64,000 nucleotides of DNA, from assembly GCA_043732705.1 (NCBI GenBank), contig JAYTHE010000040.1, positions 3,250 through 67,249 on the forward strand, given 5' to 3'. Position numbers and translations under genes: made by a program. Under the pieces are notes generated by a model. That model had not been told where the DNA came from. It did no database searches and worked only from the letters and a program-made list of their open reading frames with translations. This DNA comes from Candidatus Omnitrophota bacterium (GTDB lineage Bacteria; Omnitrophota; Omnitrophia; Omnitrophales; Aquincolibacteriaceae). Positions within the stretch are counted from its first letter, which is position 1. Each line of letters opens with the position of its first letter. Below are positions 10,329-30,695 of the stretch, one piece after another.

Positions 10329-10332
10329 TCCC

Positions 10333-12290: not shown

Positions 12291-12379
12291 TCTTGTCCCA
12301 AGCAGTGATATTTTTCTTGCTTCACTGCCATATTTCTCTTGCTCCGTAAGGGGATTCGCATATAATTCCCGCTCACACA

Positions 12380-14168: not shown

Positions 14169-14186
14169 CTTCAAGGCAATTTTCGA

Positions 14187-15434
14187 GTGAATTCTACGGG
14201 TGGACGCCGAGTCGTCGTAACAGGACTCGGCGTCCTTTCTTCTCTGGGGGTTGGTAAAGAGGCTTTTTGGGATGGCCTTGCCAACGGCCGCAACGGAATC
14301 TCCCTCATCACCGCATTTGATACCGCTGAATTTACAACCCGTTTCGCGGGTGAAATTAAGAATTTTGATCCCGCTGCTTATCTTCACGTTAAACAAATCA
14401 AACGTATGGACCGCACTTCTCAATTTGCGGTTGCCGCTTCCAAAATGGCTGTGCAGGATTCCGGAATTGATTTTCAAAAAATGGGCCATGAACGGGTCGG
14501 TGTTGTGATCGGAACAGCTATGGCGGGCCATGGATATATTCTCGATCAGCACACGACCTTGATGAATAAAGGCCCGATGCGCATTAATCCTTTTACCGCG
14601 CTGGCCGGTTTTCCTGACGCATGCGCCGGCAATGTCTCCATAGAACTTGGACTCACAGGCCCGAGCTTTTCAATTTCAACCGCATGTTCTTCCGCATCCG
14701 ACGCGATGGGCTATGCCTTTGAATCCATCCGTTCCGGCAAGCTCGACGCGCTTTTAATGGGCGGTGCGGAAGCATCGATTTATCCCGGAATTTTAGCGGC
14801 ATTTTGCGTCGCGCGTGCCATGTCCACGCGCAATGAGAGTCCTGAAACGGCTTCACGCCCTTTTAGTTTGGATCGCGACGGATTCGTTTTGGGCGAAGGC
14901 GCGGGAATGTTTGTTTTAGAAGAATATGAAAGTGCGAAGGCCCGCAGTGCGCATATTTACGCCGAAGTTTTGGGCGCGGGAATGACTTGCGACGCCTATC
15001 ATATGGTCGCTCCCGATCCTGAAGGCAAACAAGCGGTGCGCGCGATGCGCATGGCTTTGGATACTGCGCGCACGGAACTTGATGAAATTGATTATATTAA
15101 CGCGCATGGAACTTCCACACCGCTCAATGACAAAACAGAAACATTAATTATCAAAAAAGTTTTTGGTGAACAGGCTTATAAAATTCCGCTAAGCTCGACA
15201 AAGTCAATGATCGGGCATTTGATCGGCGCGGCCGGAGCAGTAGAAACAATCGCGACGATTCTCGCCATGGATAAGCAGGTGATTCCGCCGACGCGCAATT
15301 ATTCCGTGAAAGACCCTGAATGTGATTTGGATTATGTTCCGCACACAGCTCGTCCCGCGAAAATTAAAAGAGTTATGAAAAACTCCTTCGGCTTCGGTGG
15401 GAAAAACTCGATTTTAGTTTTGGGAAAAGTTTAA
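14187..15434 (+). CDS. fabF: 3-oxoacyl-[ACP] synthase II (KAS II)
   Basis: ...VVVTGLGVLSSLG... N-terminus, the active-site region ...SISTACSSASDA..., and ...NAHGTSTPLND... / ...NSFGFGGKNS... C-terminal motifs. Confidence 0.85.
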   Translation: MNSTGGRRVVVTGLGVLSSLGVGKEAFWDGLANGRNGISLITAFDTAEFTTRFAGEIKNFDPAAYLHVKQIKRMDRTSQFAVAASKMAVQDSGIDFQKMGHERVGVVIGTAMAGHGYILDQHTTLMNKGPMRINPFTALAGFPDACAGNVSIELGLTGPSFSISTACSSASDAMGYAFESIRSGKLDALLMGGAEASIYPGILAAFCVARAMSTRNESPETASRPFSLDRDGFVLGEGAGMFVLEEYESAKARSAHIYAEVLGAGMTCDAYHMVAPDPEGKQAVRAMRMALDTARTELDEIDYINAHGTSTPLNDKTETLIIKKVFGEQAYKIPLSSTKSMIGHLIGAAGAVETIATILAMDKQVIPPTRNYSVKDPECDLDYVPHTARPAKIKRVMKNSFGFGGKNSILVLGKV

Positions 15435-15449
15435 AACTTTTTGATTAAG

Positions 15450-15487
15450 GAAAGAGCTTCCGTCTGCTCAGACAGTTGTGTCCTTTC
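15450..15487 (+). repeat. 3' hairpin element carrying the loop motif TCTGCTCAGACAGTTG (family also at 57584-57599 and 59678-59695)
   Basis: GAAAG...CTTTC arms enclose TCTGCTCAGACAGTTG, 16 nt after the fabF stop codon. Confidence 0.3.
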
Positions 15488-15660
15488 GGCGCAAAACTCG
15501 CATCCGTAAATTTCTTTCTTAAATCAAAACTAAAATCTCATTGGTAGGCTTTTAATCGTGCTCGTTTCGCTTTCGCTCAACATCACACTGTTAAAGAATG
15601 GCTCGTGAAGCTCGCCTGGTTTTTAGCCGGGACTGACCCCAATGCTCTTTGGCTTAGAAT

Positions 15661-16515
15661 TTAAAGTATCTCTACTTCTTCAATCTCTCCGGCCTCCGGT
15701 CTCCGGTCTCCGGTCTGGCGCTGTCCTCGGATAATTCCGCGTTTGGATTCTTCGATAAACTTCACAAAATGTTTAGATTCAGGGCTTTTGCATTCCTTTT
15801 TAATTTCTTCCAAGGCTTGAGTGACATTTAATCCCGAGCGGTACAGCAATTTAAAAGCATGTTTGATTTCTGTGCGAGTTTCCAGATTAATCCTTGCGCG
15901 GCGCATACCCACGACATTTAAACCTTGTGCGATTCCCGGCCGGCCGCCGCACATGATGTAAGGCGGGATATCTTTATTGAAAGCGGATAAAGCAGAAACC
16001 ATCGCAAGCGTTCCGATACGTGAGAATTGATGGAAGCCGGTCATGCCCGAAAGAAAAGCTTTGTCTTCAACATGGCAATGGCCGGTGAGTGAAGCTTGAT
16101 TGACCATAATGATGTTATTTCCTAAAACACAATTATGCGCGATATGGCAATAAGCCATGATGTAATTTTCATTTCCGATTACAGTCGAGGTTCCGGGTTC
16201 GGTGCCGCGGTGAATGCTCACAAATTCACGAATGACATTCTTGTTTCCGATTTTTGTAAAGGTAGGCTCATTTTTAAATTTAAGATCCTGAGGCTCATGT
16301 CCAATAACAGCATGCATATGGATGGTGTTGCCATCACCAATTTCAGTGCCGTGACAAAGCGTGGCGCCGTGTAAAATTTTATTATTCGACCCGATTTTGA
16401 CACCGCTCGCAATAATCGTATTTGGCCCGATTTCATTCCCATTTCCAATCATGACATTTTTACCGATGATTGAGAGAGGGTGAATCTGGTTGGATTGAAT
16501 TGAGGTTTGCATGCC
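15661..16515 (-). CDS. lpxA: UDP-N-acetylglucosamine O-acyltransferase (LpxA) with a roughly 20-aa C-terminal tail extension
   Basis: Left-handed beta-helix hexapeptide repeats throughout, and the C-terminal helical domain ...KHAFKLLYRSGLNVTQALEEI... I chose the start at the internal Met (MQTSIQSNQIHPLSIIG) rather than at the ORF-track start of 16581. Confidence 0.85.
   Translation of the reverse strand, partial: GMQTSIQSNQIHPLSIIGKNVMIGNGNEIGPNTIIASGVKIGSNNKILHGATLCHGTEIGDGNTIHMHAVIGHEPQDLKFKNEPTFTKIGNKNVIREFVSIHRGTEPGTSTVIGNENYIMAYCHIAHNCVLGNNIIMVNQASLTGHCHVEDKAFLSGMTGFHQFSRIGTLAMVSALSAFNKDIPPYIMCGGRPGIAQGLNVVGMRRARINLETRTEIKHAFKLLYRSGLNVTQALEEIKKECKSPESKHFVKFIEESKRGIIRGQRQTGDRRPEAGEIEEVEIL
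15694..15717. repeat. Tandem heptanucleotide repeat (CTCCGGT, three perfect units plus a partial fourth) inside the 3' tail of lpxA
   Basis: CCTCCGGTCTCCGGTCTCCGGTCTGG read directly; it encodes ...TGDRRPEAGE... in the LpxA C-terminal extension. Confidence 0.8.
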
Positions 16516-16853
16516 GCAAATTATAGAGGGGAAGGCAACAGGCGAAAAGCTCAATCTAATCACTTGGCGAATATGCATCAATATTGGCGTTATAGTAGTG
16601 ATATTGTTAGTGACTAGAGAGAAGAGAACGATTGCTCAAATATAAAAGCTTTTATCATTGATTAACTTACATGATCAATATTGACCAAATTCATATTTAA
16701 GTCATTTAAATATAATAGGTTGCGAACATAAAATCACAGTGTCTATTCTTGCAATTCTAAAAGTCGCCTGCTATATTCCTAAGGTCGATTAAAAACTATT
16801 CACGCGAAATCATAAATAGAGCTCATATAACAGTCATTTTTGCAGGGGAAATA

Positions 16854-19800
16854 ATGTTTCAATTAAAAAATAAGACTGTTCGCGCATCAGTCGCTGTATT
16901 TACTGCAGTTTGTCTTTCATTTACACAGGCTGCAATTTCAGCGCCTATTTTTTCGGCGTCCGCTCCCGCCGAAGTATCTTTGCCCGATTCACTTCGCCTT
17001 GACCGGGCGGTGGCATTGAAAGTCCCGAGCGCAATCGCAACCATTGAAAAACTTCAGCCCGGTAACGGTAAAACAATTTTTCACATTCAAACCGCTCACG
17101 GACATTATCAGGCTCAGCAAAATATTAATTTGCTTCTCAAAGATCTTGAAAAAAATTACGGTGTCAAAACGGTTTTGGTTGAGGGTAGTTCGAATCCACT
17201 TAATCCCGAAATTATTAACTTTTTCCCCAAAGATCATGAGAAAACCATGCGCGTTGTTGATTTGCTTACGCGCAAAGCGATTTTAAAAGGTTCTGAAATT
17301 TATTTGCTTGAGTCCGGAAAAGCCCGCGGGTTTGGCATTGAAGATGAGGTCGCTTACAATCAAAACCTGCAAGACTTCGCTTTGGTCATTCGCGCGCGTG
17401 AAGAAAGTAAACAGTTTCTTGATAACCTCGAGCAAAGCATTGAAAGGCTTTCCGCGGTTTATCTCAGCACGAATTTGCGCTCGTTTTTAAAGCAAGTTGA
17501 AAGAAAAGAAACCGGTAATATTCCGTTTGATGCTTATTTGCAGCAGCTTAAAATTGCCGCAAAAAAATATGCCGAAATTGACCTTGCTGATCCGGCCTGG
17601 CAATTGCTGTGGCCCATGCTGACGCGTGTTTTTACGATTGAAAAACTCGAAAAGAAAATCGATGCGGTACAGTTTGATCAGCAGAAAAAAGATTTTCTCA
17701 CCGCCATTAAACCGTATACCGCCGTGGAGATTCCTCGGGAGTGGGCGAAGAACTCTCCCGAGGTGGCGCAGCGGGTTTCAGTCTATGAAGAAGTTAAAAG
17801 CCTCCTGGATTTAAAAGACTTAAGCGCTAAGCTTCCTGATCCGGACACGTCAATTCTTTTTGAAAACCTTGTGAAGTCCTTGCCCGCTAACTTCAACTAT
17901 GCCCGCTTTTCTTCCGTGACTTCCTTCTGCGGTATCTTGATGATCAAAAGTGAAATCAAGGCTGACGTGTTAACTGCTGAAATTTCAAAAATGGAAGATC
18001 AAATCACCGATAAGCTTGCTGAAAAGAAAACAGCCAAGGAACTTGTTGCCGTTCTTAAAGATTACCGCATGCTTCAAAAGCTTTTTTCGCTTGAGCTTGC
18101 GCCTTCTGATTATGAAGTAATCGCGGGATCGGAGACCGGCGGCCGGAGGCCCGAGAGCATTCAGCCATCTGTTCTTGCTAATCGACTTCAAACTCTTGGG
18201 GCTTCGGCCTCCAGCCTTCCAGCTAAACAAGTTCGCGGAGTTAAATTTAACCACGTCAAAGAATTAGATAGTTTGTTCAACCAAGCGTTGAAATTTTATG
18301 CCGGCGCGCGCCTTCGTGATGGAAAAATGCTCGCACGTATCGAAGAACGTTTAAAAGAAACCCATGCCGACAAAGTGGCTGTTATCACGGGCGGTTTTCA
18401 CTCTGAACCTTTTGCGAAATATTTTGAGCAGCGCGGCTATAACTATGCTTTGATGACCCCGAAAATTACTACCGTTGACGCCGAAGGGCGTAATGACTAT
18501 TTGAATGCCATGATGATGCTGGCAACCGCACAGCGATTGCAGGCTCGGAGGCTCGAGGCCCGAGGCCCGAGAACTGAATCCGCCACCATTGAAGGCAAGA
18601 GTGTGGCTGCAATGGATGCAGTAGAGCTCAGTTTACTTGCTAAGCCTGTTTCCGAAATTGTACGCAGCGAGCCGTCACTTAGTGTTGAAGCAACCGCGGT
18701 GCGTGCCCTCTGGTCAACCGAAAAATCTTCTTTACATTCTGCTTCTTCTTCAGCATCAAGCACGACAAGAGCAACAGCACGCGTTGAAATTACTGGCGCC
18801 CGCTCCGAAATGCGCGTTTCCGAATTTCCTAAGCTTGGGGAAATACCGCTGGAAGTTGATGCCTCTCAAGCAGAAAAGCAGGTTTTTATTGGTAAAGAGG
18901 AATGGCTTGGCGACCGTGAAAATTTGCAGCCGATTTTCATTCAAGGCAGAGGCTATTTGGCGATTATAGTAACTGGACCCGGGAAGTGGAAAGACAATGT
19001 AATAACCTCATTTTTCATTTCATATGATGCTGGCGGAAAAATCAACAACGTGGTTTCTCTTCCCGGCGGTAGTTTTCATGCGAAATCTAAACAAATCGAC
19101 GTGAAAGTTTCTGTGATCGATGAGTTTGCAACTGCGACCGATGTTCAGCTTTGGGTGACTTTAAAAAATCGCAAAGCCCGTATATTTCGAATTAAGGAAG
19201 ATAAGGGGGGCGAATTTGCCCTTTACAAAGCGCTTAAAGCTTTAATCACTTCCCAAAAGCGGACAGTTTCGGTAGCTGATGGAAATGCTGGAATCAAAAA
19301 AGCAAAATCTCAAATTGTGGACGCATTAAAAAACTTAGAAAGTAATCCCACTTACCAACAAGCGCAAAGACTGTCCCACTCCAAAACTGCGCCGAAACAG
19401 CGTTCAGAACGGGTCATCACCGATTACCAGCGAACGGTGCGAGGACTTGCGCTACTTCCTTCTCGCTCCGAAGCGCGCAAATTTTCCGACGTCGCTCGTT
19501 TTGTCGTCGGGAAGTTTGTTAATGCGGTGATGATTACAGGCCTAGCTGTGGCGGAAATCGTGAGAATAACTTTTTTGTCTTTTTTGATGCTGTCCTTCGC
19601 TTACGTGGCGAGAGAAAGAGCTCAAGGACCCAATAAAACTCCTCTTCAGAATAATGAGGCTGTTCGTGGGAATGTGGTTAATCTGGAGATAATCGGCCGC
19701 CACCGCTCCGAAATGCGGCCATTTATACATCCCGAGAGGATTTCTAATGATTTAGATTTGCTAACGGCTGTGCAAGCTTCAAGAGAGTATCAATCTCTCG

Positions 19801-22800
19801 ATAAGGGTGATGAGTTTTTCGTTTCCTTCTACTTGGGGCATGACCTTGTGGGCTGGATTAGAGCGCGGCGCGAGAAGGGCGAGCAACCTTGGCTTAGCAG
19901 TTACAACCGTCGCAACGATCCTGAACATAAAATGATAGGTTCCATGGCTAGGGATGCCGAAGAAAAATATGTCAGCGGCGGGAATCAAATCAACGAACTC
20001 ATTAATTTAATGCATGAAGAATCGGTCGCTCGGAAGCCGCATATTTATTTGTCAGACGAACATCCCCTGGTTCGCTACAGTAAAAAACGCCAAGCAATAG
20101 TAACTAAAACAATTGCAAGGCTTCAAAGCGCAGAAGCTGGGTTATTAGCTTTGAAAGCACAGCTGGATCGGTCAGTTGACGCACGGCAACCTGAGCCGGA
20201 AAAATTCGATCAAGAGCGATTCAATAGCGCTGCCACAGAAAGATTGGTTCAAAAATTTATTCAGCCTGCCATCGAAAATTTAAAGCTGGGCAAGTTGTCC
20301 GATGCATGGAAGTTGATTCAAACTGCAATTGGTTTGATGAACGATACAAACGGGCTGGAAAGCGGCGATGGATTGAGGGTGATTCAGTTACTTCGTGCGA
20401 CCCGAAACGCAATCAGTATATTTGCTGATAAGTACGGCGAGATAGTTCTAGAAGCAGATATGCGCGCTGAAACTGCTGAAGCTCGCTCCGAAGTGCGAAC
20501 AGTCACGCTAAGAGTTTTAACGGCGGCTATTATGGGATTCGCATTTTCTGCGATTGCGGAGCAAAAACCCGTGGCGCCGCCCGTGCTGCGTGCTGCTACG
20601 GACACGGATCCTCAATTGCTACGCAAAATCGAAGCAGTTCTTCGCCAGCCCATGCCCACTGGAAACTCAGCAGGTGCTATCCAAAGTCGAAAAAATTTAG
20701 AGACTGCCAAGGAAGCAGCGCTTAAAGAGTTGGCCGGAATCTCCAATCCCTCTGCTCTTTATGGATTATTGGCGGCACTTTTAGGAGATAAAAATCATCC
20801 CGCTTCATTGAAAGCGTTAGTTGCGGAAACGCTTAAAAAGGGTTTAGAAGCGCCGCAGTCCTCTTCTACGGTCAACGCGGTATTGAAGATTTTGTTTCAA
20901 ATTGCAAAGGATAAAAATAACCCGAATAGGACGCAAGCCATTGGAGTGCTTTCTCAAGCCGCTGAAAAGCAACGAGCGGTCATCGGTGAATTTGGAATGA
21001 GGGAAGTCAGGCTCATAATCGATGGTGCTGATAAAGAAGCTGCAGCCAAGCGTAATCTCCTTATCGCCGAACAGGAAAAAATCATCCGTGCCGTTAACCC
21101 AGCAGATAAGGAAGCCTGGGAAAAAAGAAAGAATGCACTTCTTGTTTTGCGCGGCTTCGTAGAAGATCCGGCTTTTACGCCGGGAGACAGAAGCAACATT
21201 CTCAAGCTTGTTGTTGGCTATTTGATAAGTGCTCCCGATGCAGTCGATCAACAGAAAGGAAAAGATCAAAATGGCCCTTGGGCTAAAGTAGCTGCAGCTC
21301 AGGTTCTTGAGTCAATTGGCGGAAATGAGGCTCGTGACGCTTTAAATCAATTTGTCACTGATCCGGCGCAAGATCCAAAGGTTAAAGCGGATGACGCTTT
21401 CCAGAAGGTTCTTAAAAAATTCTCAGGCCGCTCCGAAATGCGCACGCCTGAAATTACAAACGTTCGCTTTGTTTTGCCCAGCAAGATTCAGGGGAATCAA
21501 GTTCGATCTGCGGCAGCTTACGCGGTTGAAGAGGGATTACTAACGGGAACTGAGTCGTGGTGGCAAGAAATTCATACGCGGGGCAATTTAGATTTGACTC
21601 AACGCATTCTAAATGATTCGCCCAAGTTTTCGTATGAGGAATTATCGAGGTTCGCGCGCGCTTTGCCACCAGCCACGGCTTATGTCGTCGTCGTGAGAAA
21701 AGGAGATTTTGAACAAGCTAAAGAATTTTTATCGATCAAGCGGCCGATGATTTTTTTGGTTGAAGATAAAGCCGATGAAGAGGGATTGAGGAATTTAGCG
21801 ATTAAGCAGTCGGTTGCACATCTTGTTTCAGTAGCTTATGTTTCTGATTGGAAAAAAGAAAATGTTGCGTCGCTTGTGCGCGAAGAATTAGACCGAGTCG
21901 ATGGCCGTGATTTAGTGCCCCGTTTAGACCGAGTAAATATTTATTTGTCCGGGCATCTGTTAGATAGTACTAATGAAGGAAACGCACGGGCCATGCTGGC
22001 GGACAAAGGTGGGTTGTTGCGGGAGCGAGTTGGGAGTTTAGCTCGTTATTATAGATTGTATGGAGGGCAAATAAAAAGTCCTCTAAAAAGCTGGGCTGAC
22101 TTTGATGTTGCAGCAGGTAAAAATTCTCTTGAAATTATTCGTTCCGAATCGCGAGCAACTGTAACAGAAATTGAGTTTACGGGAGAAGTTCTGGTTCCCT
22201 GGCGTATCGAACTAAAATTAAAGGACGGGAAATCGGTTGAGCTTAAACTGAATCAGGAAAATAAGGCAGCGGCCAAAAAGATGTTCGCTCAAAGCTTACC
22301 TATCAGACCGCTTGTTTATACAATCAATGATGCTAGTTCAGGCACAAATTTCGGAAGTATTCAAATGAATCTTAATGAGAATCCTAAAGATCTTACAGAG
22401 AAAAATCAAATAAGCGACATCCGTATCGTTAAAGATTCCGTGGCCGTGTCTGGAAACAATACCCTTGTTAAAGAAGTGAAAGCATGGTTGGAAAGTTTTG
22501 AAAAAGAGAAGCAGGCCTTTGAGGGTAAGAGCTTAAAGCTTTCTCCTTTTCAAGTTGACGATATTCCTCTCGAAACGAAATTTCATCCGGTAACCCATAG
22601 CCTTATATCAGCTCGATTAAATTTTAGAGGGAATAATCCGGTTCAAGTGGGACTTGAGGCTGATTCTGCAAGTCTTGTGGCGATGTCAAGCGCAGGCGCT
22701 GAGCCGCGCGAAACAAGAATAACTTTTGATGTGACTGTTAGAAAACCGCTTACTTTGCCGCAGCCCGTGGGAAAAATTCATGCTACCGCTCGTGTCAGCA

Positions 22801-25800
22801 CAAATGGTTTTACATTAGATGAAGTTCGTAAAACGCAAACAAATCCTGCGGCCGTTGATGCGCAGGGCATTGTTTCTACGGCTGCGGCATGGCTTGCAAC
22901 TGAAGATCTTAGCGAGAGCAATCCAAGACTCCAGCCGGCCCCCGCCCGCTCCGAAGTGCGGGGCGATGCAACCCAACCTGTTGGCGGAAATCTTTTTACT
23001 AGACCCATGCCCCGGCGTGATGCTCTTAAGACGGCGGGTTTGCTTGGATTGATATCAGCTTTGGGCAGAACACATGTCATCGGCGCAACGGGTGATGTTT
23101 GGTTTGGTGATTCAAATTCGGCAAATCTTGCTTACACGAGCGAGCAATTTGTTAACACCGCAGATGGACGTACTTTTTGGATTTTTGTTGCGAAGCAGAA
23201 TATTCAATTTCAAACCAAACCTGATTTGCAGAACGCTGCTTGGTCTCCCTTATCTGGCACGCTTGCGGATGGAAATGTGGCCGTTATTGAACTGCCTAAA
23301 AGTGCTAATGGCAAAACAGGTTTTGGGCGCGTTGCTCGCGCTACGACGCCATCTCAGAATCAAAGACAGGCAATAACCCAGCTAAGTAATTCCAAGCCTT
23401 TGCCGTCGGAAGTACAAACAATTTTGAATTCAAAGGCTTACGCGGGCAAGAAAGTGACTGTTGTCCAACGCTCCGAAGTGAGGGGAACAGTTTTTCAAAT
23501 TGTAGATGCGTTTGAGGTATCGAAAACAGAAGCGAATTCCGAAAGTGGAGCCTATGCTGGCCCTTACTTATTGCCATTTTTGGAGCGAATGCCGGAACGG
23601 TTCAAATTTTATAAAGCGCTTCCTCAAAGTATTAATTTTGTTCACCCTATGGATGAGACCGATATTGGAGCCGTCAATTTTTTTGCCTCCATTAACACGG
23701 CATCGAAAGTGGATACAAGCAGTCTAGGTGCGGTGAAGGCAAGACGGTTCAAATTTGAAGATGAGTTCGTCGGAAAAGAAATGCTTTTTGTTTACGATAC
23801 TACAGCACAAGAAATCCATTCTATTTTCGCCCTTGATTCCAGAAACAGAATCGTAGGGGGAATCATGTTTAAGAAGTTACCAAGCGATATACTCAAACCC
23901 GAACGGCCATTTCCATTGGATCCAATTATGACGCAGGCTCTTGACCATGCCGGAGAGAGCCGGGTGCCTGCTAAAATTAAGTATAGTCCTCAAACAAAAG
24001 ATTTGGAGATTGAGTTTAATACTGTGGCTGAGCCCGAGCAGCAAGTTGGGCCATCTCTGCCTGACGCTATTTTAAAATTTAATTCTGGGTACGAAGGATT
24101 CACGGATAAGCCCATCGATTCAGCCGATGGAGCGCATGAATTTACTTTTGACACCATTGCAATAGCGGCACAGGGCCTGGATGAGCTTATTGAAAGCATT
24201 GCCCAATTAGAGGGTAATGAGGGTGTAAGTAGTGTTTACGAAAGAATCAAGGCACCACAGGGACGGATCTCTTTAATTTTTGATTCAAAAAATAATCTTT
24301 TAGCAATTCAATCTGGTGCGGCGGGAGCTAAAGCACGAGATGCTATTGTTTTTGAAAAGAAATCGGGTGCGATCTCCGAAGTTGTGGCGCGATCGAGCGC
24401 GATGGCACAAACCTTAACTGTTTTACCTACCGTTCCTGCGCCGATCAAAGGCTTATTTGGTTTTAGTGGAAAAGATCACTGGATTACTTTTACTGCGCGC
24501 TCGGAAGCTCGTTCTCAAACCGGTGGAGCCGTACGTAACGAATGGAAAATTTCGACGAAAGGTCGTTTTTCTGCCATAAGCCCCACAGGGAAAATGATTT
24601 CATTGGGTGAACGTTCGCCGTTTGAGCGTGTTGTTGAGAAAAGAGTAATTGGAGACAAGCTGATTGTAGTTACGCAAGATCCCAACCAAAAAAATTTGCG
24701 AGTTTTTAATCGGGAGGGGAAAGCTCTTCAGTTAGGTGAGTTTAATGTTATTTATGCTTTTAAGGAGTACCGCGTTGTTGGTGGTGATCGGTTAATCGTT
24801 CGCATGCGGGACGCCGGCTCCCTTTTTATTTATGATTTGGCAGACGGATCTCAAATACCTTTGGATGGCCACCCTGCTATTCGTGATAGCGGATCCATTT
24901 TGACAAATGAAATGGACGTGCGTGGCAATACTGTTTATGCCCTACATGACGGTAGTTGGTATGGTTATTCAATTCGAACCGGAAAATTAGTTAGGGATGG
25001 GCATCCGACCAAACGTGGCACAGCCTATATACCAACCGGGCTAGATATTGCTTGTTACGGTGTCATCGCAGCAATGATTGCGATTGGCTCGCTTCTTATA
25101 CCCTTAGCACATCCGAATGGGGTCAATTTTGCAGCGACCCTAGCTCAAATTGTTTCCCGCTCCGAAGCGCGGCTGTACACAAATCATGGTGGTAATGAGC
25201 CGCTTAAGCAGTTCCAAGAAGATGTTCAAGCTGGAAAAATTTCTCGTGGTAGCTGGCTTGAAGTCCGGCTCAGCAGAATTGCCGCCGTCCAAAAAGGACA
25301 ATTCGAGGGTTTCGAAAACGGGCAGCTGATACTCAAAGATAGCCGTTTCAATCCTCCCGCGATGAATGAACATTTTAATCTCAAAGAAATTGAAGCCATC
25401 GTCGTGAGGGGGCAATACGAGCATTACTTCAATATTGGGAAGAGTTTGGCAATATTTTTAATCCCGCTGTTCCTCTCTTTCGTCATAGCTTATAAATATA
25501 ATCTTCATCGAATGGGGATGGCTGTTTCGGCCACGATAGCTGTGGTTGCTAGTTTTATTTTGTCGCGTTTTCTCCCCGCTTCTGCTCCAGTGGAAGTTGT
25601 TGCTGTCGCAGAAAAAATTAAGGATATCATTGCCAAGCGTTTGGGCGCCAACCCAGAGGTTGTGACGGAAGACGCTCAGCTTGTCGAAGGTTTGAATGCC
25701 GATTCCTTGGATCTTATCGAGCTTATTAATAAAATTGAATCGCAATTCAAGATAGATATTTCAGATGCTGAAGCAGAAAGACTTGCCACAGTCGGTGATT

Positions 25801-28800
25801 ATATTCAACTTGTACAAAAAAAACTCGCCCGCTCCGAAGCGCGAGAAGATTATCGTCCTCAAAAACCAGGTGAAGAAAAACCGGCGCCGGGTATGTTCGG
25901 TCAAACACGCGTATTTGGCCGCTCCGAAATGCGGGAAATTCTCGCAGCATTTCCGACGGAATCACCGACGCACGTCGATTTTGAAAGACTATTTGCCGCC
26001 TACTTGAGCGATGTTTATACAGCTTGGAAAATTGACGGCGATGACATTAAAGATAAAGCCGATCGCGCATATGTGAAGCAGATGGCATTGCAGCATTTGC
26101 GCCAAAGATTTTTAGGCACAGGCACGGTCGATCCGAATGGGCCGAAGGCACCTTTGCATATTCGCCGTAATAAGGGATCGCTGAACGTGGTTTCAGCCGA
26201 AGGTAATGCCGTAGTCACTTCGCAGTTAACCTATAATGAATTGCGCGAAGCGGGCGCGTATAAGCGTTCTGACCTTGATACTGATCCTAGAAGAGATGAG
26301 TATCTTAAGGCTGCTTCAGGAGCTTGGGTTACTTGGAATACATTGGATGGCGGCATCGGCGAAAGTTTAATGCGTGAAGAATGGTTGCTGAATAAGGGGC
26401 TGAGGATGCGCTTGAAGGATATTCTCTCTCAAGCTGAGCAAGCGGATACGAAATATCAAGGTCCATTGGCGGCGCTTAAGCAAGCTGAAGAAAATGGTGA
26501 AACCGAAGAAATTATTAAAGCGCTGCGCGAAATTGAAAAATTAGCCGGTTATGCAGATCCGCTTCAATTGAAAATGGGCGCAAAAGGGACGGATCTTGGC
26601 CGCTCGGAAACGATTCGCGGTAATCAATATTTTGTTGGTGATGCGGAAAGACGTTTGCTCTTAATCGCGGATATTGCGACCAAGAGAAAATTCGGGAAAA
26701 TTGCCTTTCAGCCGTTTGTGAATTATCAATCCGCAGAATCTTATGTAAATCTTATGCAGCAGCCCTATCTATGGGATGTGATTGAAGGTAGTGAACATCC
26801 CCGGACTTATCAGCAAGCTCTCGAAGATGCCGGAGTTGAGATTAAAACACCGCTTGAACAGCAAGATTTGCCTAAATTTGAAATTGAAGACGGTGCGAAG
26901 GCCGGGCTTCCGACTTTGGATTCAAAAGTGCAAGATAAAGGCCAGCCGGGCGGACATGGACAATGGGGCGCTTTTTATATGATGGATTTCACCGAAATTG
27001 CTCCGCCAGATAATGGTTTTCATAATGTGCGCTTTTTTGGTAACGGTGACAACAATCATGGAAATCCCGAGCCGATTGTCGTTGGTTTTGCTATCGTTCA
27101 AAAGAAACCCATTTTGAAAATTACGACACCTGCTACCGCGATTGATACGAAGGGCGGAAAAGAAACCCTGCGTCTCATTCAACTTAAGGAACGGGTGACC
27201 AGAGTTTTGGATCAATGGGAAGAAATTGGCGCTAAAAACGCGGGACAAATTGACTTATTTTACAAAGCAGGGCAGCGCGGCGGTTTTGGCGAACAGGGCC
27301 GGCAGCATTTCAACACCAACTTGTTCGTATTTGATGAAGAGCAAATGCATCCGATTTTAAGAAAAATGCGTGAAATTGTCGGTGAGGATGAATTTTTAGA
27401 TGCGGTTATGCCGCTGTTGTTTGATAAAAGTGATAAAGCCAAAACTATTGACGGTAAAAAATTCGTATCGATGGACTCAGCCATTGGATATGTCATTCAT
27501 AATTTGAATACGTTTTACAGCACCGATCCACGGCTTGAAGAATTGCGCCGGGAATACGGCCCGCAATTGCTTTATTACATGGATTATGATCGTGGTATTT
27601 TTGCGCCCAAAAAGAAGGCCGAAGATCAATACCTGCAAGAGCGTACGGATTATTATGGTCCTTTTGATGAGGAGGCTAAAAATTTCCATGATGCCGAACC
27701 CGGGCTGACACCACCGGGGTTTGATGTTACCGATCCGGTCGAAAAAGACAGCAAAAAAGCCGATTCAAAATTTTGGGGCGAAGTGCAGCATTGGAATGAT
27801 TCGTTTGGAATATCGCGTGTCAGAAAAATGCAATCACTGAAGGTTGAAGGGCGTGTGACGATTCGCAATGCCGAGTATGTCGGGGATGTCGTGATTATCA
27901 ATCGTTTTGGCCGTGAAGACAAAACAAAACCCGCCAAACGCGTTATTTTAAGCAATGGTGTTTATTTCGAACAATTGAAAGCACTCGGTTATTGGGCCGA
28001 AGATCATTTGCTCTTAGAGAATGTGACAATCACGATTGATGAAAGTGGAATTCTGTCGACAAAACCAACCCGCTCCGAAATCCGGAATTTGGATGAGCTA
28101 TTAGCTGAATTGAATAAAGCCGTTCGAGCACCTCTGAATTACAGAGGTGCCGATGCTATGCCGCCAACGACAACGCTAGTCGCACTTGCGCCTAATTTGA
28201 ATGTTGTTATTCAAGTGAGGGATGGAGTTGGCACATCGAGAACAGTGCTTACTTATACTTTAGGAGCAAGAGAATTAGAAACAAGAAATGTATTGCCTGG
28301 CGGACGAAACGCACAGAGCTTCCCTATTGGCGGCGTGGCGTCGTATACCGTTAATTTTCAATTGCCTGCGGCTGACGATGCGAAGGTCGTGGCAGATGCG
28401 CTTAAGCGCGGGTTGCCTCAGTTCGTGACTGGCGATTTTAACGTAGTGCCAGCAGGCAATTCCGGAAGCATCGCCATTACTTTTACACCGAAACGCACAC
28501 AACGTACCGAGTTGATTGAAGCCGCTATTCCTCAAGTTATGGAAGCAATCTATCAGCTGGCGAGGTCAAGAGGGCGGAAAGTCGTAGATTATCAGTTGGT
28601 GGGCTATTCCGGTATCGTATCGAAACAGACATACGGTGCAATGGACCGCTTTCCGGTTACTTTTTCCGCCGAAACCGAACAAATAAGACAAGTGGTTCGC
28701 GCGGCGCTTGATAAAATTTTAGATCATTATGCTGATGGCAGGGTTGAATCCATTGAGGTGAAATTGCAAGATGACGCGCTCACAACAAGCGAGACCCCGT

Positions 28801-30635
28801 CTATCGCCATTGTTTTGAAAACCCGCTCTGAACTGCGGGATCTTAAGTCTGAGCCAATTTTGCTTGGAAAATTCACCCCATTTCTTATCGCTGGCGAAAC
28901 GGAGGACCCTCTCGCAATTACACCTCAGCTGGATGAGTCAAAGCAGGCTGTTGGAAATTTACAGTTTCGCAAAGTCCACTTGGGCAATTTGTCAGCTACA
29001 GCTATCGAAGAAATTAGAGATGCACTGGGACAATCAGGCCTGGACCGCGGTCATCAGGCGTTTTTTGAAAGTAATGCAAGCGGACTTGAAAAAGTTGACG
29101 CCGTAATTCGCAGCGATGGACTTTTAACTGCTTTGATCGGAAAGCAAGCGGGACATGGCGCTGTAACGCATATTGAGTTTGCGGTTCCCCTCGTTTATGT
29201 CGGAGAATATACAGTTCGGCTTGGTTATCCATCACATGGAACTTTAACAATTCCAATTGCGAGTGTTGTCAAAATTGACACAGCGGGTGGCATCATAAAT
29301 ATCGTTGCAATTGAGCCCGTGACGTCTGCCGCACGCTCCGAATTGCGGCTTCAATTGGCAGACAATACTAATCCGCAGGTACGCGCAATTGTTAAACCAT
29401 CCCTCGTTAAAGCTAGAGTAACAACTCCGGATCAATTTAATGTTCCAATTGCTGCAGGGCAAAGTATTGCAGATTCTGTGCAATCGTTTGTCTCAACTAA
29501 TTATGGACATCAAAACTTGAATGATTTGCTTGCTAACACAGGTTCCACGGGTATTAAAGTTACCTTTTTAAATTCCAAGAAAGGAATACTGTTCAGTACG
29601 GAGCTTCATTCAGATCCTTCACCAGCGGGACGAGGTACTCAATATACCGTTCTCAATTCATTTGGCACAAGAAAACCAAACATGATTACGAGCGTTTTAA
29701 TTGAAGTTGTGCGCAGCGAATTGCGCGAGCAAGTTTCGCAAAGACAGTCATCTGTTGAAACGCTCAGCGAAATTTTGCTCGATTTTAAAGCCGGAATTCT
29801 GCCTTATAATGAACTTGTCGATTTATTGAAGGGTTCGCCTGCCCAGGTTTTATTGGATGCCGCAAAGGCTGCCGGAATTGATTTGAAGCTGCCCGGCAGT
29901 ATCGATAACAGCACAGAGGATGTGCTTTCCGCGCTTTTCCCAGTGGACTTAAATGAGGCGATTACAATCAATGTTCCAAAAATTACGGTGCGTGTCAATA
30001 ATGAAAAACCGACTTCGAAGAATATTACGGGAGCGGTGATTCAATCGGCAGAGACGGTGATTGCGATGAAAAAGCAAGCTCCTCAAGCGTTGATTGCACA
30101 TTTGCGCGCTTTAAGTGAAAGAGAATTTTTGGATTTGGCGATTTCGGATAAGCCCGGTGCCGAATCTAAATTTGACTCTGCGTTGAAACAGTTTTTAGGC
30201 TCGGCAGCCGCCGGTGTTCCAAGTCTTGAGGAAAGAAAAATATTGTTTGGGAAAATTCGGCTCCATACAAAAGCAAGCCTGGCTGCTTTTGTTAAAGATC
30301 AAGGCGGGGCAGTTGCAATTATGCTGACAGGCCATAACGACGAAATTTTTACCAGTCTCCAAGGCGGTTTTCGCTTTAAAGTGAAAGGCGCGAAAGGCAA
30401 AGCTCTTTCTGGAAAGGCCTTTTTTGCCATGCCGGTTGTCAGTGTCGGCGCCGCAAAAGTTATGGCGAATATACGCGGTGTTGATGTTTCAATTGCCAAC
30501 TCGGCTATCCCAACGTACTTTAAAGCGCTTGATATGCAGGTTAACCGTGATAGTGACGGAGCGTTTGTATTCAGTGCGATCGCCCAACTTCTGCAGGCCA
30601 TTTTTAACGCTCAATACATCGGAACCATGGCTTAG
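16854..30635 (+). CDS. Giant secreted/membrane multidomain protein (4593 aa). It carries a signal peptide and at least four predicted transmembrane segments. Recognisable regions are a ChaN/Tiki-like N-terminal region, HEAT-like repeats, a beta-propeller-like region, an ACP-like domain and a UDP-sugar-pyrophosphorylase-like domain. A periodic RSE-hydrophobic-R motif recurs throughout.
   Basis: A single uninterrupted ORF in the six-frame track with the N-terminal signal peptide MFQLKNKTVRASVAVFTAVCLSFTQAAISA. Domain calls are from my reading of motifs (see findings). Confidence 0.8.
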   Translation: MFQLKNKTVRASVAVFTAVCLSFTQAAISAPIFSASAPAEVSLPDSLRLDRAVALKVPSAIATIEKLQPGNGKTIFHIQTAHGHYQAQQNINLLLKDLEKNYGVKTVLVEGSSNPLNPEIINFFPKDHEKTMRVVDLLTRKAILKGSEIYLLESGKARGFGIEDEVAYNQNLQDFALVIRAREESKQFLDNLEQSIERLSAVYLSTNLRSFLKQVERKETGNIPFDAYLQQLKIAAKKYAEIDLADPAWQLLWPMLTRVFTIEKLEKKIDAVQFDQQKKDFLTAIKPYTAVEIPREWAKNSPEVAQRVSVYEEVKSLLDLKDLSAKLPDPDTSILFENLVKSLPANFNYARFSSVTSFCGILMIKSEIKADVLTAEISKMEDQITDKLAEKKTAKELVAVLKDYRMLQKLFSLELAPSDYEVIAGSETGGRRPESIQPSVLANRLQTLGASASSLPAKQVRGVKFNHVKELDSLFNQALKFYAGARLRDGKMLARIEERLKETHADKVAVITGGFHSEPFAKYFEQRGYNYALMTPKITTVDAEGRNDYLNAMMMLATAQRLQARRLEARGPRTESATIEGKSVAAMDAVELSLLAKPVSEIVRSEPSLSVEATAVRALWSTEKSSLHSASSSASSTTRATARVEITGARSEMRVSEFPKLGEIPLEVDASQAEKQVFIGKEEWLGDRENLQPIFIQGRGYLAIIVTGPGKWKDNVITSFFISYDAGGKINNVVSLPGGSFHAKSKQIDVKVSVIDEFATATDVQLWVTLKNRKARIFRIKEDKGGEFALYKALKALITSQKRTVSVADGNAGIKKAKSQIVDALKNLESNPTYQQAQRLSHSKTAPKQRSERVITDYQRTVRGLALLPSRSEARKFSDVARFVVGKFVNAVMITGLAVAEIVRITFLSFLMLSFAYVARERAQGPNKTPLQNNEAVRGNVVNLEIIGRHRSEMRPFIHPERISNDLDLLTAVQASREYQSLDKGDEFFVSFYLGHDLVGWIRARREKGEQPWLSSYNRRNDPEHKMIGSMARDAEEKYVSGGNQINELINLMHEESVARKPHIYLSDEHPLVRYSKKRQAIVTKTIARLQSAEAGLLALKAQLDRSVDARQPEPEKFDQERFNSAATERLVQKFIQPAIENLKLGKLSDAWKLIQTAIGLMNDTNGLESGDGLRVIQLLRATRNAISIFADKYGEIVLEADMRAETAEARSEVRTVTLRVLTAAIMGFAFSAIAEQKPVAPPVLRAATDTDPQLLRKIEAVLRQPMPTGNSAGAIQSRKNLETAKEAALKELAGISNPSALYGLLAALLGDKNHPASLKALVAETLKKGLEAPQSSSTVNAVLKILFQIAKDKNNPNRTQAIGVLSQAAEKQRAVIGEFGMREVRLIIDGADKEAAAKRNLLIAEQEKIIRAVNPADKEAWEKRKNALLVLRGFVEDPAFTPGDRSNILKLVVGYLISAPDAVDQQKGKDQNGPWAKVAAAQVLESIGGNEARDALNQFVTDPAQDPKVKADDAFQKVLKKFSGRSEMRTPEITNVRFVLPSKIQGNQVRSAAAYAVEEGLLTGTESWWQEIHTRGNLDLTQRILNDSPKFSYEELSRFARALPPATAYVVVVRKGDFEQAKEFLSIKRPMIFLVEDKADEEGLRNLAIKQSVAHLVSVAYVSDWKKENVASLVREELDRVDGRDLVPRLDRVNIYLSGHLLDSTNEGNARAMLADKGGLLRERVGSLARYYRLYGGQIKSPLKSWADFDVAAGKNSLEIIRSESRATVTEIEFTGEVLVPWRIELKLKDGKSVELKLNQENKAAAKKMFAQSLPIRPLVYTINDASSGTNFGSIQMNLNENPKDLTEKNQISDIRIVKDSVAVSGNNTLVKEVKAWLESFEKEKQAFEGKSLKLSPFQVDDIPLETKFHPVTHSLISARLNFRGNNPVQVGLEADSASLVAMSSAGAEPRETRITFDVTVRKPLTLPQPVGKIHATARVSTNGFTLDEVRKTQTNPAAVDAQGIVSTAAAWLATEDLSESNPRLQPAPARSEVRGDATQPVGGNLFTRPMPRRDALKTAGLLGLISALGRTHVIGATGDVWFGDSNSANLAYTSEQFVNTADGRTFWIFVAKQNIQFQTKPDLQNAAWSPLSGTLADGNVAVIELPKSANGKTGFGRVARATTPSQNQRQAITQLSNSKPLPSEVQTILNSKAYAGKKVTVVQRSEVRGTVFQIVDAFEVSKTEANSESGAYAGPYLLPFLERMPERFKFYKALPQSINFVHPMDETDIGAVNFFASINTASKVDTSSLGAVKARRFKFEDEFVGKEMLFVYDTTAQEIHSIFALDSRNRIVGGIMFKKLPSDILKPERPFPLDPIMTQALDHAGESRVPAKIKYSPQTKDLEIEFNTVAEPEQQVGPSLPDAILKFNSGYEGFTDKPIDSADGAHEFTFDTIAIAAQGLDELIESIAQLEGNEGVSSVYERIKAPQGRISLIFDSKNNLLAIQSGAAGAKARDAIVFEKKSGAISEVVARSSAMAQTLTVLPTVPAPIKGLFGFSGKDHWITFTARSEARSQTGGAVRNEWKISTKGRFSAISPTGKMISLGERSPFERVVEKRVIGDKLIVVTQDPNQKNLRVFNREGKALQLGEFNVIYAFKEYRVVGGDRLIVRMRDAGSLFIYDLADGSQIPLDGHPAIRDSGSILTNEMDVRGNTVYALHDGSWYGYSIRTGKLVRDGHPTKRGTAYIPTGLDIACYGVIAAMIAIGSLLIPLAHPNGVNFAATLAQIVSRSEARLYTNHGGNEPLKQFQEDVQAGKISRGSWLEVRLSRIAAVQKGQFEGFENGQLILKDSRFNPPAMNEHFNLKEIEAIVVRGQYEHYFNIGKSLAIFLIPLFLSFVIAYKYNLHRMGMAVSATIAVVASFILSRFLPASAPVEVVAVAEKIKDIIAKRLGANPEVVTEDAQLVEGLNADSLDLIELINKIESQFKIDISDAEAERLATVGDYIQLVQKKLARSEAREDYRPQKPGEEKPAPGMFGQTRVFGRSEMREILAAFPTESPTHVDFERLFAAYLSDVYTAWKIDGDDIKDKADRAYVKQMALQHLRQRFLGTGTVDPNGPKAPLHIRRNKGSLNVVSAEGNAVVTSQLTYNELREAGAYKRSDLDTDPRRDEYLKAASGAWVTWNTLDGGIGESLMREEWLLNKGLRMRLKDILSQAEQADTKYQGPLAALKQAEENGETEEIIKALREIEKLAGYADPLQLKMGAKGTDLGRSETIRGNQYFVGDAERRLLLIADIATKRKFGKIAFQPFVNYQSAESYVNLMQQPYLWDVIEGSEHPRTYQQALEDAGVEIKTPLEQQDLPKFEIEDGAKAGLPTLDSKVQDKGQPGGHGQWGAFYMMDFTEIAPPDNGFHNVRFFGNGDNNHGNPEPIVVGFAIVQKKPILKITTPATAIDTKGGKETLRLIQLKERVTRVLDQWEEIGAKNAGQIDLFYKAGQRGGFGEQGRQHFNTNLFVFDEEQMHPILRKMREIVGEDEFLDAVMPLLFDKSDKAKTIDGKKFVSMDSAIGYVIHNLNTFYSTDPRLEELRREYGPQLLYYMDYDRGIFAPKKKAEDQYLQERTDYYGPFDEEAKNFHDAEPGLTPPGFDVTDPVEKDSKKADSKFWGEVQHWNDSFGISRVRKMQSLKVEGRVTIRNAEYVGDVVIINRFGREDKTKPAKRVILSNGVYFEQLKALGYWAEDHLLLENVTITIDESGILSTKPTRSEIRNLDELLAELNKAVRAPLNYRGADAMPPTTTLVALAPNLNVVIQVRDGVGTSRTVLTYTLGARELETRNVLPGGRNAQSFPIGGVASYTVNFQLPAADDAKVVADALKRGLPQFVTGDFNVVPAGNSGSIAITFTPKRTQRTELIEAAIPQVMEAIYQLARSRGRKVVDYQLVGYSGIVSKQTYGAMDRFPVTFSAETEQIRQVVRAALDKILDHYADGRVESIEVKLQDDALTTSETPSIAIVLKTRSELRDLKSEPILLGKFTPFLIAGETEDPLAITPQLDESKQAVGNLQFRKVHLGNLSATAIEEIRDALGQSGLDRGHQAFFESNASGLEKVDAVIRSDGLLTALIGKQAGHGAVTHIEFAVPLVYVGEYTVRLGYPSHGTLTIPIASVVKIDTAGGIINIVAIEPVTSAARSELRLQLADNTNPQVRAIVKPSLVKARVTTPDQFNVPIAAGQSIADSVQSFVSTNYGHQNLNDLLANTGSTGIKVTFLNSKKGILFSTELHSDPSPAGRGTQYTVLNSFGTRKPNMITSVLIEVVRSELREQVSQRQSSVETLSEILLDFKAGILPYNELVDLLKGSPAQVLLDAAKAAGIDLKLPGSIDNSTEDVLSALFPVDLNEAITINVPKITVRVNNEKPTSKNITGAVIQSAETVIAMKKQAPQALIAHLRALSEREFLDLAISDKPGAESKFDSALKQFLGSAAAGVPSLEERKILFGKIRLHTKASLAAFVKDQGGAVAIMLTGHNDEIFTSLQGGFRFKVKGAKGKALSGKAFFAMPVVSVGAAKVMANIRGVDVSIANSAIPTYFKALDMQVNRDSDGAFVFSAIAQLLQAIFNAQYIGTMA
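18542..18572. repeat. GC-rich tandem 7-8 nt repeat (GGCTCGGA GGCTCGAG GCCCGAG GCCCGAG) inside the giant gene
   Basis: Read directly; it encodes ARRLEARGPRTE. A related GC-rich block GGAGACCGGCGGCCGGAGGCCCGAGAGC lies at 18131-18158. Confidence 0.7.
25608..25826 (+). other. Acyl-carrier-protein-like domain embedded in the giant protein (phosphopantetheine-attachment DSL motif)
   Basis: AEKIKDIIAKRLGANPEVVTEDAQLVEGLNADSLDLIELINKIESQFKIDISDAEAERLATVGDYIQLV matches the ACP consensus (LGxDSLD...ELV...E..F...I.D......TVGD..DYI). The candidate Ser codon TCC is at 25704-25706. Confidence 0.6.
25921..28067 (+). other. UDP-sugar pyrophosphorylase (UDPGP family)-like domain embedded in the giant protein
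   Basis: ...VTWNTLDGGIGESLMRE... (about 26343) resembles the UDPGP G-rich loop (LNGGLGTSMG). ...GQPGGHGQW... (26946) matches the PGGHGD motif. The C-terminal part resembles the left-handed beta-helix tail of UGPase. Confidence 0.5.
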
Positions 30636-30654
30636 TTTTCTCCGTTTTTAAAGC

Positions 30655-30695
30655 CCGCTGCCTCGAAAGGGTGGCGGGTTTTTTATTTTCCACGG
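30655..30695 (+). terminator. Rho-independent terminator after the giant gene
   Basis: AAAGCCCGCTGCCTCGAAAGGGTGGCGGGTTTTTTATTTT: a GC-rich stem followed by a T-run, 20 nt after the stop codon. Confidence 0.5.

Follow-up and report, generated by a model that had tools for sequence, protein, structure and literature searches.

A 64,000-nucleotide (nt) stretch of the genome of Candidatus Omnitrophota bacterium (GenBank assembly GCA_043732705.1, contig JAYTHE010000040.1, positions 3,250 to 67,249; here called the window) contains a gene, at 16854..30635 on the plus strand, for a protein of 4593 amino acids (aa) in which a five-residue motif, R-S-E-x-R, recurs at the junctions between a conserved N-terminal domain (the head), a series of unrelated protein units (the cassettes) and a conserved C-terminal domain (the tail). 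The same head-cassette-tail architecture is observed in the relatives of this protein, in which RSExR is strongly enriched, coincides with the cassette boundaries and is restricted to this gene family. We consider it somewhat probable that the gene packs an operon into one reading frame and encodes a polyprotein processed at RSExR; cleavage at the motif, the position of the cut and the type of enzyme are what we infer from the sequence.

RSExR divides the window protein into modules

RSExR occurs 16 times in the window protein, compared with 0.07 copies expected (Poisson p 3e-32), at the positions given in the feature list below, and is found in none of the other real open reading frames (ORFs) of the 64-kb window. 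The 16 copies split the protein into 17 modules, the head and tail being separated by 15 unrelated stretches which comprise 14 protein cassettes and one 25-aa spacer. At the nucleotide level, 12 of the 16 motifs share the spelling CGCTCCGAA (given codon usage, p 5e-11 to 3e-15), those beginning at 18801, 19464, 19704, 20484, 21429, 22947, 23469, 25158, 25830, 25920, 28071 and 29334, and the third base of the codon next to the CGCTCCGAA nucleotides is G in 14 of the 16. The fourth motif codon is ATG, GTG, TTG or CTG in 11 of the 16 copies, and the preferred motif codons are the commonest codons of the genome. The motif spelling is shared in 5/6 in the relatives L005 and L044 (loci are numbered L and family proteins P throughout), different spellings being used in other genomes. 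Family-wide, the first motif Arg is encoded by CGY in 83% of cases versus a background of 46%, and the Ser by TCC in 54% versus 20%. Since the synonymous spelling differs between genomes, selection acts on the peptide. The codon bias may reflect selection for accuracy, favouring the commonest codons, or microhomology during cassette exchange.

RSExR marks cassette boundaries across an Omnitrophota family

A pattern scan in which each GTDB species was represented by one genome yielded 51 related loci, of which every one with a named organism belongs to an Omnitrophota metagenome-assembled genome (MAG), the remainder deriving from MAGs labelled 'uncultured bacterium'. An exhaustive profile search with the head returned 7,702 cluster representatives (50% identity clusters, E <= 1e-3), the best 150 of which were examined in detail. 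Among these 150, the head lies within the first ~100-200 residues wherever the N-terminus is present, and the longest protein reaches 7,823 aa. In genomes the family was found only among Omnitrophota, and IMG/VR viral contigs lack the head. Close relatives of the N-terminal 650 aa of the window protein also carry RSExR and then diverge into different sequences. The original prediction, made from the letters of the window, had stated that the domain combination corresponds to no known family and proposed a comparison with orthologues in related MAGs; that comparison reveals the same head-to-tail layout with different cassettes, and the window protein is in fact a typical member of a huge Omnitrophota family defined by head, tail and RSExR. 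Several genomes hold two or three family copies, some in tandem. Three paralogues are present in several MAGs (JBAYGD01, JAHFHI01, CAZIQJ01), and complete head-to-tail genes stand in tandem at L017/L046 (contig JBAYGD010000013.1) and at L049 (9806-13561 and 14178-20528).

Head and tail are both present in every motif-bearing ORF with visible ends among the 51 loci. RSExR is observed 215 times in these loci versus 2.5 expected and 728 times in 152 family proteins versus 9.7 expected. Lineage variants of the motif (RAExR, RPExR, RTExR) give a family consensus of R[SAPT]ExR, in which x is mostly L, V, A or M. The flanks are enriched in S/P/T/A, with S/T at position +1, and depleted in aromatic residues; the motif therefore sits in a context resembling an exposed linker. 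Spacing between motifs, measured from start to start, has a median of 180 aa and an interquartile range of 101-331 aa, with 21 of 249 spacings in the family being shorter than 30 aa.

The relationship between motif and boundary was measured on 199 inter-member BLAST high-scoring segment pairs (HSPs), head and tail excluded, in comparison with 300 shuffles. A motif is found no more than 12 aa from the HSP start in 160 of 398 cases versus 27 at random (maximum 42), and from the HSP end in 137 versus 25. Conversely, an internal motif is present in only 65 HSP sides versus 237 at random (minimum 215), and a smaller data set agrees. Shared blocks bounded by the motif are located at different positions in different members, the median shift being 830 aa, indicating that the cassettes have been shuffled. 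One cassette occupies residues 1252, 1884, 2797, 2805 and 3595 of five proteins, always beginning exactly at a motif.

The cassettes that can be recognised appear, as judged by their domain matches, to be whole proteins: acyl carrier protein (ACP), receiver, tandem CsrA, glutamate dehydrogenase (GDH) and a UDP-sugar-pyrophosphorylase (UDPGP)-like enzyme. In L005 an ACP of ~82 aa stands alone between two motifs. Residues 715-1618 of P0044 (2639 aa) contain, in succession, a helix-turn-helix domain (HTH_3), a response-regulator receiver, GDH and a tandem single-chain CsrA, of which the receiver, GDH and CsrA cassettes are delimited by motifs and the HTH lies 5' of the first canonical motif. The receiver begins 4 aa past RAEVR, and the native CsrA N-terminus, MLVLTRK, directly follows RAEVR. 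The P0044 cassettes imply that global regulators are expressed from head-cassette-tail genes.

The UDPGP-like cassette of the window protein, module 13, is 35% identical to P0007 over 683 aa (E 1e-108). The aligned region of P0007 matches PF01704 (UDPGP) with 36 bits (cutoff 22), and GG(I)G, PGGHG and GNGDN motifs are seen in the alignment. A direct search with module 13 detected no PF01704 match at E <= 5 and no PDB sequence match. Thus, the UDP-sugar-pyrophosphorylase-like domain claimed in the original prediction finds no direct match in Pfam or PDB but is upheld indirectly, through the homologue P0007. P0007 itself (886 aa, JGI/Logan) is a stand-alone protein with a signal-like N-terminus and a C-terminal region of multiple transmembrane (TM) segments, features which suggest a membrane-associated nucleotidyltransferase family. 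The cassette recurs at varied positions in 6 other members, starting shortly past a motif in 5 of the 6 (none is near in P0115) and ending at a motif in 2.

Modules of the window protein

The modules and junctions are as follows (window coordinates, strand, feature).

16854..16943, +, Sec-type signal-like N-terminus, aa 1-30, with a K/R-rich n-region and a hydrophobic core at aa 11-33; kept in relatives
16968..18518, +, head domain, aa 39-555, family-defining and weakly Tiki/TraB/ChaN-like, with invariant H, E, E, R and GGxH
18519..18800, +, Ser/Ala/Thr-rich linker past the head, aa 556-649
18801..18815, +, junction motif 1, RSEMR, aa 650
18816..19463, +, module 2, aa 655-870, no known family
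19464..19478, +, junction motif 2, RSEAR, aa 871
19479..19703, +, module 3, aa 876-950, small membrane module, hydrophobic at aa 884-919 (nt 19503-19610)
19704..19718, +, junction motif 3, RSEMR, aa 951
19719..20483, +, module 4, aa 956-1210, no known family
20484..20498, +, junction motif 4, RSEVR, aa 1211
20499..21428, +, module 5, aa 1216-1525, signal-peptide-like start, then HEAT at aa 1285-1365 (nt 20706-20948)
21429..21443, +, junction motif 5, RSEMR, aa 1526
21444..22139, +, module 6, aa 1531-1762, no known family
22140..22154, +, junction motif 6, RSESR, aa 1763
22155..22946, +, module 7, aa 1768-2031, no known family
22947..22961, +, junction motif 7, RSEVR, aa 2032
22962..23468, +, module 8, aa 2037-2205, twin-arginine-signal-like start PRRDALKTAGLLGLISALG, RR at aa 2054-2055
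23469..23483, +, junction motif 8, RSEVR, aa 2206
23484..24497, +, module 9, aa 2211-2548, no known family
24498..24512, +, junction motif 9, RSEAR, aa 2549
24513..25157, +, module 10, aa 2554-2768, C-terminal hydrophobic anchor at aa 2726-2755
25158..25172, +, junction motif 10, RSEAR, aa 2769
25173..25829, +, module 11, aa 2774-2992, two hydrophobic helices at aa 2859-2913, then ACP at aa 2920-2986 (nt 25611-25811) with a DSL motif
25830..25844, +, junction motif 11, RSEAR, aa 2993
25845..25919, +, module 12, 25-aa spacer peptide flanked by two motifs
25920..25934, +, junction motif 12, RSEMR, aa 3023
25935..28070, +, module 13, aa 3028-3739, probable divergent UDP-sugar-pyrophosphorylase-like enzyme
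28071..28085, +, junction motif 13, RSEIR, aa 3740
28086..28823, +, module 14, aa 3745-3990, no known family
28824..28838, +, junction motif 14, RSELR, aa 3991
28839..29333, +, module 15, aa 3996-4160, no known family
29334..29348, +, junction motif 15, RSELR, aa 4161
29349..29711, +, module 16, aa 4166-4286, no known family
29712..29726, +, junction motif 16, RSELR, aa 4287
29727..30632, +, tail domain, aa 4292-4593, alpha/beta core plus terminal helix, ending in GTMA-COOH

In a Pfam search of the window ORF only PP-binding and HEAT_2 score above threshold, and no protease domain is detected. Both hits agree with modules previously proposed for this protein: the ACP-like domain is identified by PP-binding (PF00550) at aa 2920-2986 with 44.9 bits (cutoff 20.8; E 5e-10 for the whole protein, 1.4e-11 for the module), the DSL serine lying in ...GLNADSLDLIEL..., and the HEAT-like repeats are recovered at threshold (29.5 bits versus a cutoff of 27.7). 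The putative beta-propeller region of module 10 finds no match in Pfam or in PDB sequence/profile searches. Altogether 13 of the 17 modules have no assignable function, or 14 with the tail counted. The view of the protein as a mosaic of unrelated modules rather than a repeat adhesin holds, as self-BLAST reveals no internal similarity at E < 1e-3. A nonribosomal peptide synthetase/polyketide synthase megasynthase was considered and discarded, no KS/AT/C/A domains standing beside the carrier domain in Pfam, as was a hidden Cys protease within the ORF, Cys making up only 0.1% of residues (~5 in 4593 aa).

Signal and TM assignments are based on hydropathy only, and the structure models are of moderate quality. 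Hydrophobic segments are found at aa 11-33, in accordance with the signal-peptide-like start originally described, and at nt 19503-19610, 20499-20558, 25029-25118, 25428-25505 and 25509-25592, the internal coordinates listed earlier matching this profile. Module 3 is, by hydropathy, a membrane hairpin of ~80 aa. Module 5 reads RSEVR-TVTLRVLTAAIMGFAFSAIA/EQ, resembling a Sec signal peptide with an AxA site (MGFAFSAIA/EQ); in module 8 a twin-arginine-like RRDALK lies 18 aa past the RSEVR of aa 2032; and in L019, at ~6520 (ORF residue 1056), a lipoprotein-type signal with lipobox VVLAALLGLAAC directly follows RSETR inside the polyprotein. Family-wide, hydrophobic segments are enriched 10-20 aa past the motif and depleted 5' of it, occurring at +5 to +30 of the motif in 7.3% of cases versus 3.1% at random (p 3e-9). 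No TM segment past the signal-like N-terminus is present in 29 of 111 members, P0044 among them.

Head and tail domains

The head of the window protein, which is its own cluster representative (P0008) in a library of 1.84 billion proteins, matches the head profile over aa 41-555 with 859 bits and E 1e-253, a score that is partly circular as P0008 is among the six sequences of the query profile. In 44 sequences, down to 25% identity, residues H44, E72, E125, R220, R450 and G475-G476-x-H478 are invariant. Weak Pfam matches of these heads are to Cofac_haem_bdg (ChaN) in 10 of 44, DUF5682 in 8 and DUF5694 in 3, with a best E-value of 0.0017. None reaches a Pfam gathering threshold, the window head scoring 12.4 bits versus the Cofac_haem_bdg cutoff of 27.7. 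A Foldseek comparison of the head model with PDB returned nothing significant, and a PDB sequence/profile search with the head found no match. The ChaN/Tiki-like region of the original prediction therefore survives as a weak but plausible likeness at superfamily level that misses every formal threshold. The head differs from the Tiki superfamily in that its core is split by a helical insertion of ~340 aa and in being always N-terminal in a polyprotein, a context which, to our knowledge, is not known for that superfamily. It shares with Tiki, TraB-PrgY-GumN, ChaN and erythromycin-esterase proteins an N-terminal H-x4-H-G, a Glu past strand 2, an Arg and a C-terminal GGxH, and a Tiki/TraB/ChaN-like identity is plausible from these residues. 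The head invariants would match the Tiki-superfamily motifs reported by Sanchez-Pulido and Ponting (2013).

The tail is an alpha/beta domain of ~200-300 aa which forms the last 302 aa of the window protein. With an iterated hidden Markov model seeded from the window tail, the domain is located at the very C-terminus in at least 38 members. The C-terminal residue is Ala in 97 of 129 long members (AA 44, SA 36, MA 10; p 4e-71), and an amphipathic helix precedes this [A/S/M]-Ala-COOH end, which resembles the C-terminal recognition tails of the ssrA/ClpX or Tsp/Prc type. Ala-ending tails are seen at window 30621-30632, among the family proteins P0009-P0154 and in loci L006, L018, L021, L024, L028, L033, L039, L040, L042, L048, L049 and L054, a few of them (L018, L028) with RSExR 8-10 aa from the end. 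PDB sequence/profile searches and a word-indexed search with the tail alignment produced no match. Head and tail constitute two previously undescribed conserved book-end domains.

Gene, expression signals and locus

The transcription unit comprises three elements.

16705..16853, +, AT-rich leader with promoter-like hexamers and a Shine-Dalgarno (SD)-like GGGGA at 16845-16849, 4 nt 5' of the ATG
16854..30635, +, polyprotein ORF, 4593 aa plus stop
30650..30692, +, intrinsic terminator, 14-bp stem with 7 G-C pairs and a T-run, 15 nt past the stop codon

Across the gene the longest competing ORF in the other frames is <=141 aa. The identical 4593-aa protein is also encoded on a 17.9-kb contig of an independent Logan assembly (SRR23617244), confirming the single uninterrupted ORF of the original prediction and answering its concern about an assembly chimera; since the family head is present at the start and the family tail at the end, the ORF is complete and not chimeric. 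Promoter-like and terminator-like sites within the ORF are no commoner than in shuffled sequence, eliminating internal promoters or terminators as candidates. SD-like sequences 5' of the junction motifs number 0 of 16, versus 18 of 39 real gene starts, making internal initiation unlikely. Translation starting at the fourth motif codon was likewise rejected, that codon being a non-start codon in relatives. The window ORF is a single transcription and translation unit. An RNA hairpin in the motif was also rejected, only a 3-bp stem being possible.

The gene order is pheA, an aminotransferase, tyrA, rpsA, fabF, lpxA (minus strand), the window ORF, tyrS and an ABC-2 transporter, the genes adjoining the ORF having normal stops and normal lengths. 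The order rpsA-fabF-lpxA-X-tyrS is kept in homologue-bearing MAGs, one of them a named Omnitrophota (GCA_035436425.1), and the block from pheA through the aminotransferase, tyrA, rpsA and fabF to lpxA on the minus strand is found at window 9174-16581 and at L002 2511-9697, which are distinct Omnitrophota MAGs. This conservation of the upstream block indicates that the polyprotein locus is core-chromosomal. On the scale of the window, 43 of the 46 listed ORFs (>=150 aa) are on the plus strand and the cumulative GC skew climbs monotonically; the whole 64 kb thus lies on one replichore, co-oriented with replication. A scan of the window for tRNA and tmRNA genes found none.

Proposed processing at RSExR

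A strict five-residue motif, in a linker-like context and at every junction, suggests that RSExR is the recognition site of an endoprotease. We propose cytoplasmic cleavage of the chain at all 16 motifs, during or after translation; the cut may fall past the last Arg of RxExR, the native CsrA N-terminus in P0044 being the hint. The released UDPGP-like enzyme would stay cytoplasmic, modules 3, 10 and 11, the last with its ACP domain, would insert in the membrane, and modules 5 and 8 together with the head would be exported through their own Sec- or twin-arginine translocation (TAT)-type signals. The protease might be the head, acting in cis, or an Arg-specific enzyme acting in trans, each being equally possible. 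Among the domains encoded in cis, the head alone is both universally conserved and catalytic-looking; its Sec-type export signal, which suggests that it works outside the cytoplasm, speaks against it as the cutting enzyme.

TAT and lipoprotein signals normally need an N-terminal position. The presence of signal-like, TAT-like and lipoprotein-type segments following the motif suggests that the cassettes are separately targeted proteins, and since P0044 carries HTH, receiver, GDH and CsrA without a TM segment, an exported head would have to be separated from such cargo. Combined, separately targeted proteins would fit the sequence better than one multi-pass protein. The earlier suggestion of one protein crossing the membrane several times is accordingly not the best reading of the hydrophobic segments, which open motif-delimited modules or anchor single ones. 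The more general proposition, that Omnitrophota routinely express ordinary cellular proteins (regulators, metabolic enzymes, ACP, exported and membrane proteins) as virus-style polyproteins cut at every RSExR by a dedicated Arg-specific processing system, with cassettes exchanged between paralogues at the motif, we hold more tentatively, at a little less than an even chance.

Several points weigh against processing. The support for cleavage consists entirely of sequence statistics; an uncleaved topology with cytoplasmic ACP and UDPGP-like modules can be drawn if the TAT-like segment is a TM helix; the signals past the motif may be relics of gene fusion; a hydrophobic segment follows only ~7% of motifs; and some members have few or no canonical motifs, L039 (3587 aa) and P0070 (3052 aa) having none.

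Alternative explanations

The strongest competitor, which we regard as unlikely, is an uncleaved giant multi-domain membrane protein in which RSExR would serve as an inter-domain hinge or docking motif (chaperone, scaffold). Passive hinges would not usually consist of a strict five-residue motif at essentially every boundary with no other type of linker, and such a protein would place dimeric or hexameric cytoplasmic proteins (CsrA, GDH, HTH, receivers) behind a Sec signal without a TM segment and TAT and lipoprotein signals just past the motif. In its favour, no protease was found, the hydrophobic segments allow a multi-pass topology that is self-consistent, and 10.64898/2026.06.07.730766 takes each giant Omnitrophota protein to be one polypeptide, carrying up to hundreds of TM helices.

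A secreted 'effector train' similar to the MARTX toxins, in which head and tail would function in export and the cassettes would be released in host or prey by cleavage at RSExR, is improbable. Conserved ends around shuffled, fast-diverging and mostly unannotatable cassettes, a secretion-signal-like N-terminus, several paralogues per genome and the proposal that Omnitrophota are predators or parasites (10.1101/2023.11.21.568195) are all in keeping with this idea. However, RTX repeats, a C80 protease and neighbouring type I secretion system (T1SS) genes are lacking, the gene resides in the conserved housekeeping neighbourhood rpsA-fabF-lpxA-X-tyrS, and the cassettes resemble ordinary cell proteins with their own Sec, TAT or lipoprotein signals and anchors.

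We attach slightly less probability again to RSExR being a by-product of an element acting at the nucleic-acid level, whether a recombination adapter, an RNA processing signal or a signal for internal initiation. The identical spelling of 12 of the 16 motifs, the CGY/TCC bias, the shuffled cassettes and the start-like fourth codon in 11 of 16 copies could be accommodated by this explanation. The spelling, however, varies freely between genomes with the peptide being kept, the x codons include non-start codons in addition to the lack of SD-like sequences, and the preferred codons, being the commonest of the genome, fit accuracy selection; exchange aided by microhomology may add to a function of the peptide rather than replace it.

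Finally, an artefact of assembly or gene calling, separate genes having been merged by mis-assembly or lost stops, is highly improbable given the identical ORF in the independent assembly, the normal stops and lengths of the adjoining genes and the head-to-tail layout shared by >100 relatives of up to 7823 aa, even though some relatives (L043, L044, L051) are split by frameshifts or masked N-runs. In these three loci the polyprotein is divided into overlapping ORFs in different frames or by the N-runs, breaks which may be assembly errors or real frameshifts.

Relation to known systems and significance

The proposed polyprotein has partial counterparts in several systems. Viral polyproteins are cut at short sites, such as the Q/G sites of picornavirus 3C and the dibasic sites of flavivirus NS2B-NS3, the latter in combination with internal signal sequences. 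They resemble the window protein in that one ORF provides many proteins with a short motif in a flexible context at the junctions, where cleavage is here proposed, in that internal signals and anchors, as in flaviviruses, would give the products different locations, and in that a catalytic-looking domain is encoded in cis. In contrast, the window gene is chromosomal and cellular, has housekeeping genes as neighbours and is not found in IMG/VR contigs, its motif is different, and its cassettes are shuffled between paralogues.

MARTX toxins are proteins of 3.5-5 thousand amino acids (kaa) whose modules are set free by cuts at short sites between them. Their size and their conserved N- and C-terminal regions around variable, recombination-exchanged modules are similar to those of the window protein, which differs in having no RTX repeats, no cysteine protease domain and no T1SS genes and in having cassettes like ordinary cellular proteins. 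Multi-copy precursors cut at repeated motifs include yeast alpha-factor (Kex2), prohormones (furin), nematode polyprotein allergens and cyanobactin PatE. The likeness is in units flanked by a short Arg-containing motif, the protease reading being a proposal here; those precursors repeat one small peptide or domain, whereas each cassette here is a full-size protein of 80-900 aa unrelated to the others.

The closest relation is within the phylum itself. Two preprints describe giant mosaic ORFs in Omnitrophota, among them a 'multi-enzyme metabolic cluster' class (West-Roberts et al. 2023, 10.1101/2023.11.21.568195; 10.64898/2026.06.07.730766), and the window ORF is a small relative of this phenomenon. 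Unrelated domains (HEAT, ACP, nucleotidyltransferase, GDH, PGM, receiver) tile one ORF, a signal peptide and TM segments are present and most of the sequence has no Pfam match; at 4593 aa, however, the window protein is below the size cut-offs used (>=10 kaa in 10.64898/2026.06.07.730766). Neither the head nor the Ala-ending tail nor RSExR came up in text searches of the two papers, and a literature search with the junction motif strings returned only unrelated alginate-lyase papers and nothing relevant on Omnitrophota polyproteins. Missing cleavage points blocked further analysis of the giants (West-Roberts et al., 10.1101/2023.11.21.568195), and internal signal-peptide calls have been regarded as artefacts (10.64898/2026.06.07.730766). 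Whether the giants are one chain or a cut product is the key open question in this literature, and RSExR supplies the first candidate cutting points.

As a rule for splitting these ORFs into meaningful units, RSExR serves annotation and structure prediction. If cleavage at RSExR is true, the family would be the first case in which a cellular organism makes widespread use of polyproteins to express housekeeping-type proteins. This would amount to a new way of expressing genes, one initiation event yielding a whole 'operon' of proteins, and would imply a new protease specificity. Should RSExR also punctuate the giants of 10-150 kaa, it would explain the use of those 'impossible' proteins.

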